Made by a program: the position numbers and the translations under genes. From Minisyncoccota bacterium (lineage in GTDB: Bacteria > Patescibacteriota > Minisyncoccia > Phycocordibacterales > UBA12079), in NCBI GenBank assembly GCA_023140255.1, contig JAGLLX010000001.1:27861-91860 (forward strand): a DNA stretch of 64,000 bases, in the 5' to 3' direction. Below the pieces are notes generated by a model. The model had not been told where the DNA came from. It worked only from the letters and a program-made list of their open reading frames with translations, and searched no databases. This document shows, one piece after another, positions 5,481 through 59,594 of the stretch. The stretch's first letter is position 1. Each line of letters opens with the position of its first letter.

Positions 5481-6647
5481 TTAAAAAACCAAAAGATTTG
5501 GAGCTATTAAAAGCAAAACTCCAAGTATAATCATCAACACACCTCCTATTAAAGAAGATAAGTTTGAATACTTCTGCCCTACTGCATAAAATTTACTAAA
5601 ACCATACAAAGCTAACCCTAAGATTAAAAAATCATCAATCATATATGAAAAAGTGTACAAGAAAATATAAAATTGTTCAGTTAATAAACTGAGATTATTT
5701 AATTCTAAGATTTTAGTGAAAGCCTGAGGAATTCCGATAGAACAAGCAAACTCAATAATATTTACAGAAAAAGCTACTCCAATTATTCCTATAGCAGTTA
5801 AAATACTCATTGGTTTATTTACTAAATTTCGGATTTTTCCTTCTGTTTTAGATTGTTTTTCTAAATCAGTATCACATACTAATTTCCCACGATTCTTCCA
5901 ATACCTATACACAAAATAAATCCCTGAACTTATCGCCAACACCCCAATCGCAGGAGTTATAATTTGATCTAAACCAATAAAATCCCAAGTTCTAAACCAA
6001 AAATTTAAAATTACCCAGTACATTACAGCTTCAGCAAAAATAAACAATCCCGCTACTTGAAACATTTTTTTCTTGTCTTTAATCTGCCATAAAATCAATA
6101 AAAAAGTCATCAATACCCACATAGCACAAGGATTAAAACCATCAACTAGACCTAAAGTAAAAGATAAAGAAAAAAGAGAAAAGTCCTTTAAATTTACAAT
6201 TCCAATAAAAGGTAATTTAAACTCAAAACTTTGTTCTGGGTTAATGTTAATTTGAGGATCTTGATTAATTAAATTATTATTTTTATCAATTAAAGCAATT
6301 ATTTGCTTACCTGTTATCTCATCAGAAGCAAAACCTTGAAAAATATCTTGTCCTATTATAGTGGTTGGTGTAACTTTTGGTAAATTATATTTTTCAGTTA
6401 TAAAATCAAATTGCTGTTTATTCCCTTCCTGAAGCACATCAACTATTATTAAATTAAAATCATCTCGTTCTTGAATTAAATTTTCAAAAAAAACTAGTTC
6501 TTTAGTACAATGAGAACAACCCTCTCTTTCAAAAAGATAAATATCTACTTTATTAACCTCTTTAACTTGAATATCTTCTGCTTTAGAAACTTGAGGTAGA
6601 AAGAAAACCTGAATCAAAAACAATCCTAAAAATATCTTTTTTATCAT
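5481..6647 (-). CDS. Secreted thioredoxin-fold (CxxC) domain fused to a polytopic membrane domain with conserved Cys (DsbD/CcdA-like thiol-disulfide oxidoreductase)
   Basis: Signal peptide; EREGCSHCTKE CxxC; membrane domain with GFNPCAMW and EFACSIG cysteines. Confidence 0.45.
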   Translation of the reverse strand: MIKKIFLGLFLIQVFFLPQVSKAEDIQVKEVNKVDIYLFEREGCSHCTKELVFFENLIQERDDFNLIIVDVLQEGNKQQFDFITEKYNLPKVTPTTIIGQDIFQGFASDEITGKQIIALIDKNNNLINQDPQININPEQSFEFKLPFIGIVNLKDFSLFSLSFTLGLVDGFNPCAMWVLMTFLLILWQIKDKKKMFQVAGLFIFAEAVMYWVILNFWFRTWDFIGLDQIITPAIGVLAISSGIYFVYRYWKNRGKLVCDTDLEKQSKTEGKIRNLVNKPMSILTAIGIIGVAFSVNIIEFACSIGIPQAFTKILELNNLSLLTEQFYIFLYTFSYMIDDFLILGLALYGFSKFYAVGQKYSNLSSLIGGVLMIILGVLLLIAPNLLVF

Positions 6648-55133: not shown

Positions 55134-55400
55134 TTATTTTTTTAGTCCTAGAGTTTTAATTACTTTATTGTAACGAGCAGTACTCTTTTTTTGTAAATAT
55201 TTTAAATGTTTTCTTCTATCAGCTACCATTTGTAATAAACCTTTTCTTGAATGTCTGTCTTTTCTATGAGTTTTTAAATGCATTGCTAATTCATCAATCT
55301 TTTTAGATAAAATAGAAACCTGTACTTCTGGAGAACCAGTATCAGCTTTGTGTTTCTGAACCTTCTTTATAGCGTTATCTTTTTTTACTTTTGTTAACAT
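55134..55400 (-). CDS. rpsO: 30S ribosomal protein uS15
   Basis: 88 aa, ...GSPEVQVSILSKKI...HLKTHRKDRHSRKGL... Confidence 0.9.
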   Translation of the reverse strand: MLTKVKKDNAIKKVQKHKADTGSPEVQVSILSKKIDELAMHLKTHRKDRHSRKGLLQMVADRRKHLKYLQKKSTARYNKVIKTLGLKK

Positions 55401-55446
55401 GATGCGAAAATAATAGCATTAATTATTAAAATTTGCAAGAAAATAA

Positions 55447-55631
55447 GGGTAAAATAGTGTATTTATGAGATATTTGATGGAATCTGATTTAACCTCCGAG
55501 GAAGGAGTTCTGCCGTTAGAAGTAAAAAACCAAAGGTTTTTGTCAGTTTTAACGGTAGATTTTATTGTTAAATAAATAACAACAAAAGATTAAATCTAAC
55601 TCCTTATCTCATAAATACACTATTTTACCGA
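55447..55631. mobile_element. MITE-like element with perfect 25-bp terminal inverted repeats
   Basis: GGTAAAATAGTGTATTTATGAGATA ... TATCTCATAAATACACTATTTTACC; the interior carries a CCGTTAGAAG...TTTTAACGG hairpin of the CCGTTAGAG family. Confidence 0.55.
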
Positions 55632-55723
55632 TATAATTCTATGAATTCACTAATTTTTTTAAATTAACGAATTCAATAGAATGGGTAAAGTGTTTGTTCT
55701 AAACACCTTACCCAGATGAGAAG

Positions 55724-56101
55724 TTACTCTTTAGGATTAAGAGCATCCTTCACTGCTCGGGCAAGGCCGGTATTGTATTGGCCTTTGTTTACTCGAGCAG
55801 CACCTTCAAAGGTTTTCCCGTTAATGGTTACGATTGTAACATCAACTTGGCGACCTCTGAAAGCTGAATCATTTTTCCCGAATCTGTCACGGAAGTTAAC
55901 TGCGACATTTTCGAAACCTTTTTCTTTAAGAAGCCCAAAAATCTGGAGCTTCTCAATTTTCGGAGGATCAAATGATCTGTAGTCCCATGAGAATTCAACA
56001 TTCTCTAGGCAGATACAGCTTTCTTCTGCATTTGCAGGTATAGTTGAAATAACAACTAACATTACCAAAACTACCAAAAAACTACCGATTAATTTCTTCA
56101 T
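55724..56101 (-). CDS. Small secreted protein (island gene A)
   Basis: Signal peptide MKKLIGSFLVVLVMLVVISTIPANA; GGAG SD; GC-elevated. Confidence 0.45.
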   Translation of the reverse strand: MKKLIGSFLVVLVMLVVISTIPANAEESCICLENVEFSWDYRSFDPPKIEKLQIFGLLKEKGFENVAVNFRDRFGKNDSAFRGRQVDVTIVTINGKTFEGAARVNKGQYNTGLARAVKDALNPKE

Positions 56102-56217
56102 CTTCTTTCTCCTTTCTCGGAATTTCCGAGATCTAGTTTTGTTATTATAACGTTAAGTTGATAGATTACTACCGCAAAACAAATAACGATAACGATAGTT
56201 AAGTATGCGATTTGCAT
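56098..56217 (-). CDS. Unannotated 39-aa single-TM peptide (island), translationally coupled to gene A
   Basis: Hand translation MQIAYLTIVIVICFAVVIYQLNVIITKLDLGNSEKGERR; SD AAAGGAGG; stop overlaps ATG of gene A (ATGA). Confidence 0.35.
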   Translation of the reverse strand: MQIAYLTIVIVICFAVVIYQLNVIITKLDLGNSEKGERR

Positions 56218-56252
56218 GATACCTTCCTCCTTTCTCGGAATCTCCGAGATAT

Positions 56253-56423
56253 GTAAACTTTATTTAAAGAACATCTACTATGAAACTTCAAACACTTTGT
56301 TTAAAATTTCAATAATAGGCTGGAGTGAGTATTTTTCAATAAACACTCCAGCGAACTTTGAACACTAAGTTTTTTGTCTAGGACTGGGGAACTTGGAAAC
56401 CTTTTTATTATTTAAGAACAACT
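56253..56423. repeat. Promoter/leader repeat module, copy 1
   Basis: Contains hairpin CTGGAGTG...CACTCCAG; on the minus strand TTGAAA-N16-TATTAT; palindrome GAAACTTCAAACACTTTGTTTAAAATTTC. About 99% identical to copy 3. Confidence 0.6.
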
Positions 56424-56810
56424 TCAGTCATAATCATGTCTGGTAGTGAAGAGCCTTGTTGCCTCAGTTTTGTTTTTTACAGAAATTGGTATATTACCAT
56501 CAATATACCACTGAGAGTGGTTAAATCTCTCAATAAATTCTTTCGTGCCTTTTTGCGGAGCTTCACAAGAATTTGTACACTTCTTGGAACAACCTTCGCA
56601 CATTTTTGTTGCTTCAAGCTGGCTTTTGATGTAGTCGAGGACTTTCTCGGCTTTTTCGGTGAGGTTGTCTTGAATAGTAGATGGATAATATATACATATC
56701 TCTATCCCATTCCCCCAGTTTAAATCTATTTGATATACACCATCTACCGACTGAATCAATGTATTGCTACATTGATTTGGAATTGGTATTTCAAATCCTC
56801 TTGTACTCAT
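56424..56810 (-). CDS. Small cysteine-rich protein (island gene B)
   Basis: 128 aa, CEGCSKKCTNSC cluster; SD GGAGAGGAG preceded by hairpin TCCGACAATGTCGGA. Confidence 0.45.
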   Translation of the reverse strand: MSTRGFEIPIPNQCSNTLIQSVDGVYQIDLNWGNGIEICIYYPSTIQDNLTEKAEKVLDYIKSQLEATKMCEGCSKKCTNSCEAPQKGTKEFIERFNHSQWYIDGNIPISVKNKTEATRLFTTRHDYD

Positions 56811-56845
56811 CTCTTTCTCCTCTCCGACATTGTCGGAATTTAAGT

Positions 56846-57022
56846 TATTTTCCCAAAAAACTTATATATTCAAATTTATTTAAAGAACTACTATGAAACT
56901 TCAAACACTTTGTTTAAAGTTTCAATAATAGGGGTGAGATACTTGCAAACTAAACAAGTCTCACCCTTTTGAACATTAAAGCTTTTTGATACCCAGAAGC
57001 TTTGGAGAACTTGGAAACCTTT
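56846..57022. repeat. Promoter/leader repeat module, copy 2 (diverged)
   Basis: Same block order as copy 1; hairpin stem replaced by GGGTGAGA...TCTCACCC (compensatory). Confidence 0.6.
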
Positions 57023-57274
57023 TTAAAGGTTAAGACTTTCTGTAAAATTGGAGTAATCACTCCAATCACAAGAACAACAGGACCGTTTTATTTGATACCT
57101 TCGGACCTGCACCCTTTTGTAAGGATAATTTGCCACGTAATTTCTTACGTGAACAATTTCCTTTGTTAATAGTATTTGTTCCTTTCTGACCCACCCCTCA
57201 CATTCAGGGCAGATATTTTTTGAAAGAGCCTCTTCTCTTAGGGCTTTTTCCAGTCTTTCCTTTGTATCATTCAT
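57023..57274 (-). CDS. Small zinc-ribbon-like protein (island gene C)
   Basis: 83 aa; CPEC ... CCSC; start overlaps end of gene D. Confidence 0.45.
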   Translation of the reverse strand: MNDTKERLEKALREEALSKNICPECEGWVRKEQILLTKEIVHVRNYVANYPYKRVQVRRYQIKRSCCSCDWSDYSNFTESLNL

Positions 57275-57452
57275 CTTCTCCTCCTTGTTTTATATATAAC
57301 TTCATTGTCAAAATATATGTTTGCCAGATTGGACAGCAGTTTTTATCGCAATAGACTTGAGTTGAAGCAGCTGCTCCCCTGTTTCCAGTTACAGTGAGAC
57401 CACATCCATCTCCTTTTTGAAATTGACACCTTAACTCGTTATTATTACTCAT
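57267..57452 (-). CDS. Small cysteine-rich peptide (island gene D, 61 aa from MSNNN)
   Basis: Start re-set to the Met preceded by SD GAAAGGAGACGGGG; 5 Cys; the C-terminus encodes the SD for gene C. Confidence 0.4.
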   Translation of the reverse strand: MSNNNELRCQFQKGDGCGLTVTGNRGAAASTQVYCDKNCCPIWQTYILTMKLYIKQGGEDE

Positions 57453-57492
57453 TCCCCGTCTCCTTTCTCGACATCGTCGAGATCTAGTATAT

Positions 57493-57647
57493 AAAACTTT
57501 ATTTAAAGAACATCTACTATGAAACTTCAAACACTTTGTTTAAAATTTCAATAATAGGCTGGAGTGAGTATTTTTCAATAAACACTCCAGCGAACTTTGA
57601 ACACCAAGTTTTTATACTAAGGCAGAAAACTTGGAAACCTTTCTATC
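57493..57647. repeat. Promoter/leader repeat module, copy 3
   Basis: About 125 bp essentially identical to copy 1. Confidence 0.6.
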
Positions 57648-58118
57648 TTATTTCAGACAGCGGATAGACAGGCCTAATTGTTTTCCACTTTTGCCTTGGG
57701 TACCCTTACAATTCAAATCAGTAATATCTCTCCTGTTAGCCCAAGCAAGATCTTCATTTATAGAAGAAGATGACCAGAAAAAAGCAGTATAATAAAAATT
57801 GAGAAGGTTGACGTAACCGTAAGAGAAACGTACTCCTGCAAAAAATAAGTTGGGGATACTTTCCCTACCCTTTTCTCCAAGGATAGACCATTCTTCAACA
57901 GTCGGTATCTGCTTTCCAGCTTTTTTGGTTTCTCGTATTGCAGCAGAAAAGGTAAATAATTGTTGGCCTGCAGTATTATATACCCCAGTACCACCAACAT
58001 ACTCCCAAATATCCTTTTCAGGATTTTGGAGATAAACAACTCCGTTATTGTCGGTAAATTGTTCCCAACCACTAGAGTCAACCTTGAAATTTTCGTTTTC
58101 CAGCTGAAGATTACTCAT
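57648..58118 (-). CDS. FISUMP-domain protein (Fibrobacter succinogenes major paralogous domain)
   Basis: ...IPTVEEWSIL..., AGVRFSYGYVNLLNFYYTAFFWSSSS, GLSIRCLK C-terminus; SD GGGGAAGGAG preceded by hairpin CCCGATGATTTCGGG. Confidence 0.55.
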   Translation of the reverse strand: MSNLQLENENFKVDSSGWEQFTDNNGVVYLQNPEKDIWEYVGGTGVYNTAGQQLFTFSAAIRETKKAGKQIPTVEEWSILGEKGRESIPNLFFAGVRFSYGYVNLLNFYYTAFFWSSSSINEDLAWANRRDITDLNCKGTQGKSGKQLGLSIRCLK

Positions 58119-58279
58119 TTCCCTTCTCCTTCCCCGAAATCATCGGGTTAGTTTAAAATTGACAACAAAAAGAAAATTATTCCCAAAAAACTTGATATTT
58201 AATTGTAAAGAACATCTTTTTCTCTTTATTAAGAGAGTGGAAAATACGAAACTTCATATTTTTTTCTCTCTAAACAAAA

Positions 58280-58323
58280 AATTGGTCGTTTAATTCTTTC
58301 GGAAAAGAATTAAACGACCAATT
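58280..58323. terminator. 20-bp-stem hairpin bounding the island
   Basis: AATTGGTCGTTTAATTCTTT-CGGA-AAAGAATTAAACGACCAATT with T-run on the minus-strand side. Confidence 0.5.
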
Positions 58324-58354
58324 TCTGATCTTTTAAACTCCTTCCTCAAAAAGC

Positions 58355-58472
58355 TTGTCCTGTTAGAGGTAAGAAACTGAAAATTTCTGTAAGCTCTAAT
58401 AGGATTTTTTATTTATCCCGTTAGAAGTAAAAAATCGTAGATTTTCGTCAGTTCTAATGGGATTTAGTTTTT
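58355..58472. repeat. Two tandem hairpin units of the CCGTTAGAG family
   Basis: CCTGTTAGAGG...CTCTAATAGGA and CCCGTTAGAAG...TTCTAATGGGA; the second is about 80% identical to the MITE interior at 55525..55575. Confidence 0.45.
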
Positions 58473-58700
58473 AAAATGTTTCCGTCTCTTTCTTAACTGT
58501 ATTTATAGTATCATAACTAATATAATTTGTCAAGGGATTTAGTTTGCTTAAGTTATTTTTAATTTTTTAATCCCCTTTCCTTAATTACGAATACTATATC
58601 ATATTGTAAATAACTTGTCAAGCTTTGTTTAAAATAATTTAGAAATCCAACTTTCGTTATGTCGCACAATATTTTTTATGATTATGATATAATTTAAGGA

Positions 58701-59594
58701 ATGAAAGGTTTAAAACAATTAAAAAATGAGTTTCTGGAATATCTAGAGATTGAAAAAGGGCGAAGTCTTAAAACTGTTGAGAATTATGATCGCTACTTAA
58801 GTCGTTTTTTGGGTTATCTAGAATCAGACTTCCCTTCTGCTATTACTGATGAAAAAATGAGAAAGTATCGTTTATGGTTAAATCGTCAACCAACTGGAAA
58901 TAATTCAGAAACATTAAAAAAGAGAACTCAGAATTATTATTTAATCGCTTTACGAGGTTTTTTAAAATATTTAGTCAAAAGAGAAATAAAATCTTTTGCT
59001 CCAGAAAAAATAGAACTAGCTAAAGTCGGAGAAAGGTCTTTAGATTTAATTTCGGCAGAAGAATTAAAAAGATTATTAAATATATCAAAAGGAAAAGATT
59101 TAAAAGATTTAAGAGACAAAGCTATTTTAGAATTACTCTATTCTACAGGATTAAGAGTTTCAGAATTATGTGCTTTAAATTCTGATATTGATTTAAGAAA
59201 AGATGAAATGTCAGTTCGCGGAAAAGGAGATAAGGTACGAGTGGTTTTCTTTTCTCATTCAGCCAAAAAAGCAATTAAAGAATATCTTGATGCAAGAAAA
59301 GATATGGACGAAGCTTTGTTTACTTCATTGAGTAAAGATAAAGCTAGTCGTTTAACTACAAGGTCTGTGGAGAGATTAGTTAAACAATTAGCCATTAAAG
59401 CTGGGATTACAAAGAAGGTTACTCCCCATATTATTAGGCATTCCTTCGCTACTGACTTGTTAGAGAATGGGGCTGATTTAAGATCAGTGCAAATGATGTT
59501 GGGTCATTCTGATATCTCTACTACTCAAATTTATACCCATATGACAGATAAACATTTAAAAGATATACATAAAAAATTTCATAATAAGAAATAA
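58701..59594 (+). CDS. xerC: Tyrosine recombinase XerC/XerD family
   Basis: N-terminal SAM-like domain; catalytic R..HxxR..Y (HIIRHSFAT ... TQIYTH). Confidence 0.85.
   Translation: MKGLKQLKNEFLEYLEIEKGRSLKTVENYDRYLSRFLGYLESDFPSAITDEKMRKYRLWLNRQPTGNNSETLKKRTQNYYLIALRGFLKYLVKREIKSFAPEKIELAKVGERSLDLISAEELKRLLNISKGKDLKDLRDKAILELLYSTGLRVSELCALNSDIDLRKDEMSVRGKGDKVRVVFFSHSAKKAIKEYLDARKDMDEALFTSLSKDKASRLTTRSVERLVKQLAIKAGITKKVTPHIIRHSFATDLLENGADLRSVQMMLGHSDISTTQIYTHMTDKHLKDIHKKFHNKK

Follow-up and report, generated by a model that had tools for sequence, protein, structure and literature searches.

A candidate gene-cassette array with repeated hairpin modules at the rpsO/xerC junction of a Patescibacteria bacterium

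Introduction

The locus described here raises the question of what separates two housekeeping genes, rpsO and xerC, in a tiny bacterium of the Patescibacteria (CPR), and what is done by the repeated sequences found between them. In about 60 of 80 related loci the two genes adjoin and are transcribed divergently, usually with a gap of 60-200 bp; in the window (the whole 64-kb stretch of DNA that was analysed) the gap holds a 3.3 kb insert. An initial annotation described this insert as a GC-elevated island of small genes, each behind a copy of a repeated promoter/leader module. The region is considered here to be a lineage-specific gene-cassette array in an otherwise tight, conserved junction; this judgement is made jointly for the whole reading developed below, and its chance of being right is put at about even.

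Gene content and base composition

The GC content of the insert rises to 35.0% over its span against 28.1% for the window, the highest value among 306 windows of 2.9 kb in a sliding-window check; the level of 40-45% first claimed for it did not hold, the reading frames lying at 33-39% and a single 300-nt window peaking at 42%. The clearest compositional signal is GC3, which is 26-34% in the cargo genes against 15.1 +/- 3.5% in 52 background reading frames (z = 3-5.4); the codon-position pattern of the cargo (GC1 or GC2 above GC3, with purine-rich first positions) fits real coding sequence. The modules themselves are host-like at 29-30% GC. The related array L010 repeats the pattern, with cargo GC3 of 31-51% against 15-22%. 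The proposal of an island of compositionally foreign small genes, set like cassettes between copies of a repeated module, is thus borne out by GC3 and by comparison of the junctions.

All six minus-strand reading frames named between rpsO and xerC are present (Table 1). Gene A itself misses the curated thresholds for FISUMP (22 bits where Pfam asks for 33.9, and 17.6 where NCBIfam asks for 41.65); its homologs at 41-47% identity do carry the domain. FISUMP-like genes stand alone in unrelated contexts elsewhere, and gene A is therefore no defining part of a system. It has no recognisable promoter of its own; a hairpin, CCCGATGATTTCGGG (58133-58147), lies directly 5' of its ribosome-binding site, and its first nine coding nucleotides, ATGAGTAAT, are common to genes A and B (repeat family D3). 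Gene C is probably translationally coupled to B because the two overlap. Genes B, C and D have no match in any family library; C and D are orphans among 5.8 billion proteins, C matching only itself, and nothing supports the bacteriocin or effector role suggested for these proteins. ORF E is doubtful and the least convincing of the genes; it is flanked by a duplication of about 24 nt of the hairpin-plus-ribosome-binding-site unit, and is missing in the related array L111, in which the F homolog follows the module directly. The structural model of F (pLDDT 76.5) shows a beta-alpha-beta3-alpha fold; F, which has a signal peptide, is predicted to be a secreted alpha/beta protein. The F family is the only cargo family common to different arrays; it stands last in the window array and in L111, and first in L115.

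Table 1. Features of the rpsO/xerC junction in window coordinates (dot, no strand given)
Feature	Position	Strand	Remarks
rpsO	55134-55400; with own promoter 55134..55438	-	fixed boundary of insertion zone
MITE-like element	55443..55634	.	30-nt inverted ends; contains one D4 hairpin (55508-55555)
Module 0, degenerate	55637..55714	-	P2 55682-55714; P3 55637-55681; covariance model 66.2 bits
Gene F	55724..56101	-	125 aa; signal peptide; conserved CxC motif; homologs at 46-51% identity
ORF E	56098..56217	-	39 aa; hydrophobic; between two ATCTCGGARATTCCGAGAAAGGAG copies (56234-56248, 56115-56131)
Module 1	56253..56423	-	P2 56319-56352; P3 56275-56318; GTTCTTTAA box
Gene D	56424..56810	-	128 aa; CxxCxxxCxxxC; preceded by hairpin TCCGACAATGTCGGA (56823-56837)
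Module 2	56846..57022	-	P2 56932-56966 (GGGTGAGA.../...TCTCACCC); P3 56888-56931; GTTCTTTAA box; covariance model 78 bits
Gene C	57023..57274	-	83 aa; CxxC...CxC; 8-nt overlap with B
Gene B	57267..57452	-	61 aa; 5 Cys; preceded by hairpin CTCGACGATGTCGAG (57467-57481) and AAAGGAG
Module 3	57493..57647	-	P2 57558-57591; P3 57514-57557; GTTCTTTAA box; 69.7 bits minus strand, 21.3 plus strand
Gene A	57648..58118	-	156 aa; divergent FISUMP-like; no signal peptide; GC3 0.31
Array start	58198..58260	-	P3 3' arm remnant; small hairpin TCTCTTAATAAAGAGA; box (ATGTTCTTTACAATT)
Platform terminator	58278..58325	-	20-21-bp stem, then T-run
D4 hairpin inserts	58355..58460	.	two copies of 48 nt; repeat family inside platform transcript region
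Platform promoters	58505..58621	-	two tandem, strong, sigma-70-like; pointing into array
ATATTGTGCGACA motif	58660..58672	-	tied to xerC; one exact copy per locus
xerC	58701..59594	+	single Xer-type tyrosine recombinase; transcribed away from array

Spacer modules

The three reported copies of a module of about 165 nt were recovered; copies 1 and 3 agree at 99% over 120 nt, with copy 2 more divergent. A fourth module follows gene F, so that every unit (A, B-C, D and E-F) has a module behind it; in this degenerate module 0 the P2 hairpin is terminator-like and the P3 sequence is diverged yet fully paired, and an ortholog in L111 (6394-6470) carries compensatory P2 changes. The modules start at most about 55 nt after a stop codon and are made up of a GC-rich terminator-like hairpin (P2), a 19-20-bp hairpin (P3) with one bulged U and conserved G-U pairs, which stacks directly on P2, and the GTTCTTTAA box; module 3 also has an extra hairpin after the stop codon and a TGTTCAAAG box.

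Whole modules fold with z-scores of -6 to -7. Folding energies are -34 to -45 kcal/mol for the coding strand and -25 to -36 kcal/mol for its complement, and the covariance model gives the coding strand 52-78 bits and its complement 21-26. The GC-rich hairpin said to covary between copies (GCTGGAGTG/CACTCCAGC against GGGTGAGA/TCTCACCC) is real. Eight different P2 stems (-17 to -23 kcal/mol) all end exactly at the base of P3, and five of the eight are called by a terminator scanner. The P3 alignment shows standard pairs in 171 of 171 cells, against 35-47% in slid controls; 7 of its 19 pairs are changed on both sides, which 0-1 of 500 shuffles equalled, this covariation coming from few independent lineages and mainly from degenerate copies compared with canonical ones. 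The G-U pairs of P3 arise on the coding strand only, and the hairpins before the ribosome-binding sites covary too.

A hairpin that is kept through compensatory changes and coding-strand-only G-U changes points to a folded single strand rather than a double-stranded binding site; a folded single-stranded DNA site would be equally compatible with the G-T pairs and compensatory changes. A purely structural RNA needs no near-invariant P3 sequence, which argues for a sequence-specific partner or for recent spread; such a partner could be a DNA-binding recombinase.

Related arrays and fixed elements

A search for the module in related genomes, as had been suggested, found the same spacer or parts of it at the rpsO/xerC junction of five related populations. 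L111, with housekeeping genes 88-90% identical to the window in nucleotides, has an array of four unrelated genes and one F homolog; L010/L102 (79-82%) carries HicAB and genes of 92, 325, 126 and 123 aa; L115 and L116 have F-family genes between the same elements, and L009 has the platform and the GTTCTTTAA box. Among these sister species the genes between the modules are almost all different; the modules, the platform and the end elements persist. P3 and the box, together with P2 wherever its variant is common to both species, show 92-96% identity across species and exceed the housekeeping genes in this; over 93 nt module 2 matches the L111 module at 5570-5662 with 95.7% identity, and the 5' leader of D has 84% identity to the leader of g1, an unrelated 91-aa gene of L111, until 5 nt before the ATG. 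A PsyrT/ShosT-like PRTase adjoins the L111 array.

The platform lies upstream of the whole array and outside the modules; its strong, conserved sigma-70 promoters (58621, 58533) read TTGACA-17-TATAGT (11/12, TG) and TTGACA-17-TACTAT (10/12, TG), and equivalent tandem promoters occur in L111, L010 and L009. At the other end, rpsO has its own promoter (TTGCAA-17-TATTAT, TG). The platform terminator is kept in five populations with compensatory stem changes, and the MITE-like element has orthologs in L010 (5576-5720) and L111 (6474-6685); both elements are real as first annotated, but they are orthologous fixtures in sister species and thus not the ends of one recent insertion. The array start is 85.7% identical to L010 8825-8886, and the same arrangement is seen in L111 (4544-4572), L009 and L115. 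In L009, L111 and L115 the platform lacks the D4 hairpin inserts at this place, and in L010 it has a single one, which marks D4 as a small mobile insert.

Proposed function of the modules

The explanation preferred for the locus is a cassette array in which RNA-level terminator/processing modules separate the units and also mark the points of cassette exchange; it is about as apt to prove right as wrong. The platform comprises the tandem strong promoters, a short leader and the 20-bp terminator, and is followed by four cassette units; the modules would act in the transcript, on the coding strand. P2 is envisaged as an intrinsic-terminator-like hairpin that ends or attenuates each unit; P3 is a plausible target for a double-strand-specific RNase or an RNA-binding protein, and may in addition protect the 3' end; the 5' end of the following unit may be readied by the GTTCTTTAA box together with a 7-bp hairpin that, in this species, lies directly against the ribosome-binding site. 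Most expression would stem from read-through from the platform promoters, so that the genes nearest the platform would be expressed best. Behind P2, the run of U residues is broken (CUAUUAUU) and also serves as the 5' arm of P3, which means that P2 may terminate only weakly; the platform has a strong terminator at its end, and read-through into the array is therefore not assured. The conserved modules are taken to be the joints for cassette replacement, for which the simplest route would be DNA uptake followed by homologous recombination within the modules; homologous recombination covers exchange between arrays, but not the precise first gain of module flanks by a foreign reading frame.

Alternative explanations and known systems

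The alternative that survives best, although it is considered unlikely, is integron-like capture dependent on Xer: the module (P3, or the hairpin before the ribosome-binding site) would be a folded single-strand recombination site, and the neighbouring Xer would use it to release cassettes in circular form and to integrate them again at the array start, downstream of the platform promoters. Xer acts on the folded hairpin of the CTX phage, and integron integrases are relatives of Xer. (See also PMC4792948.) The layout agrees with that of an integron in every point. Shared with sedentary chromosomal integrons and CALIN (as defined in PMC4889954) are a tyrosine recombinase gene placed divergently beside an array of uniform orientation, strong outward promoters adjoining that gene, small and mostly orphan cassettes, a toxin-antitoxin cassette (the reverse-oriented HicAB of L010), imperfect-hairpin repeats that are homogeneous within the genome, and complete turnover between close species. 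Capture is further favoured by an array start that has the P3 3' arm and box only, by the half-modules flanking HicAB in L010, by the duplicated hairpin site around ORF E, by the shifting position of the F family, and by a P3 that is strand-specific, bulged and conserved in sequence; XerS and XerH, the two bacterial Xer systems with a single recombinase that have been described, have the site adjoining the gene (PMC5357621, PMC6449649).

The recombinase, however, is the ordinary conserved Xer of the clade: its product matches Pfam Phage_integrase (E = 1.8e-47) and scores above the cut-off of the XerA-type NCBIfam model NF040815 (256.6 bits, cut-off 220) but below that of the integron-integrase model TIGR02249 (133.8, cut-off 265); the gene is orthologous and syntenic with rpsO in about 60 genomes, and in about 45 it sits at the same place beside a short junction without an array. 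The modules lack R''/R' cores (RYYYAAC/GTTRRRY), and each is two stacked hairpins plus a box rather than one bulged hairpin; the better-folding strand is the coding strand, whereas attC recombines on the other; homology up to the start codon is not predicted by a P3 crossover; and 13 contigs of the source population contain no cassette polymorphism, excision or rearrangement variants. The sole conserved motif linked to xerC, ATATTGTGCGACA, which lies within about 100 nt upstream of the gene in about 35 of 80 related loci (besides TTTTGCGAC variants), occurs in either orientation and remains beside xerC in loci with inserts; it does not flank the cassettes.

Two other Xer-associated systems resemble the array in part. 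The pdif modules of Acinetobacter plasmids and IMEX at dif carry accessory genes, including toxin-antitoxin genes, in discrete units near or dependent on housekeeping Xer, but the units here have no repeated flanking 28-31-bp two-arm dif-like site, the xerC-linked motif being single-copy and without a partner arm. In the vpma/vsp loci of Mycoplasma, with adjacent Xer1, inversion takes place between oppositely oriented genes of one paralogous family; the Xer-like gene beside a gene row, the conserved upstream regions and the few promoters for the locus are similar, whereas the units here are all direct and the genes mutually unrelated except for the F family.

It is quite improbable that the modules are selfish miniature repeats, that is, non-autonomous mobile elements (Correia/ERIC/REP-like) that invaded an ordinary horizontally acquired island, with any effect on genes incidental. 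The locus does hold small mobile hairpins, since the 48-nt D4 comes and goes between species, together with a MITE-like element; L010 has partial and nested module copies, and the near-identity of copies 1 and 3 speaks for homogenisation within the genome. Against invasion, the module is absent elsewhere in the window (0.01 chance matches expected), and all 11 P3 matches of the covariance model in 1.29 Mb lie within three arrays, in gene orientation and right after stop codons; whole modules lack terminal inverted repeats and target duplications, and they outlast the genes between species, where invasion would predict the opposite. Correia/NEMIS elements of Neisseria and ERIC of enterobacteria are cut by RNase III or RNase E and alter the stability of neighbouring cistrons. 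They too lie between genes, measure 100-170 nt, are transcribed together with their neighbours and form long mRNA hairpins, but they are scattered over the genome in either orientation and have terminal inverted repeats and target duplications, and the modules here keep to one locus and one orientation and outlast the surrounding genes.

The initial annotation favoured a promoter/leader module with an operator, in which each module is a sigma-70 promoter plus operator palindrome and the cassettes are independently transcribed under one repressor; this is now very improbable. The promoter TTGAAA-16-TATTAT (10/12) was confirmed in copies 1 and 3, TATTAT is invariant across all canonical modules, and the sequence conservation of P3 would suffice for a protein-binding site. 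The -35, however, is lacking in copy 2, in two of the three canonical L111 modules and in all L010 modules; it lies in the variable loop of P2 and is not conserved, so the modules are not promoter/operator units, and TATTAT is the base-paired foot of P3. The palindrome is real but only the upper part of the longer bulged hairpin P3, the supposed operator being its arm pair; its asymmetry comes solely from one-strand G-U changes, it is kept by compensatory changes, and an operator would hardly be a 43-bp palindrome that tolerates a 50-nt central insertion, as in the third module of L010 (8125-8262). The window array contains no gene for a repressor.

A prophage or satellite remnant, that is, a moron-like gene cluster with phage-type intercistronic terminators and RNase III sites, would account for small orphan genes of atypical GC, each with a terminator-like hairpin behind it, and for the defence- or toxin-type cargo in or beside sister arrays (HicAB, the PRTase), but is extremely improbable given that no cargo matches PHROG, that the module has no match in 50,697 phage records and IMG/VR beyond chance 17-mers, that no structural, replication or integrase gene is present besides the housekeeping Xer, and that the borders have no tRNA or attachment-site duplication. 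In the early mRNA of phage T7, RNase III hairpins of about 20 bp between short genes punctuate the transcript and stabilise its pieces, and phage morons are genes of atypical GC, each with its own terminator; the array is alike in its short genes of atypical GC with recurring hairpins of about 20 bp between them, but no phage context was found for it in those same three collections.

Conclusion

Membership of the locus was tried and rejected for the canonical integron, the dif-module, the MITE and the prophage, and family libraries and a literature search recognised no described system in its combination of features, in agreement with the first reading of the sequence. With an integron-like layout without the enzyme and sites of an integron, the array may be a different way of storing captured genes.

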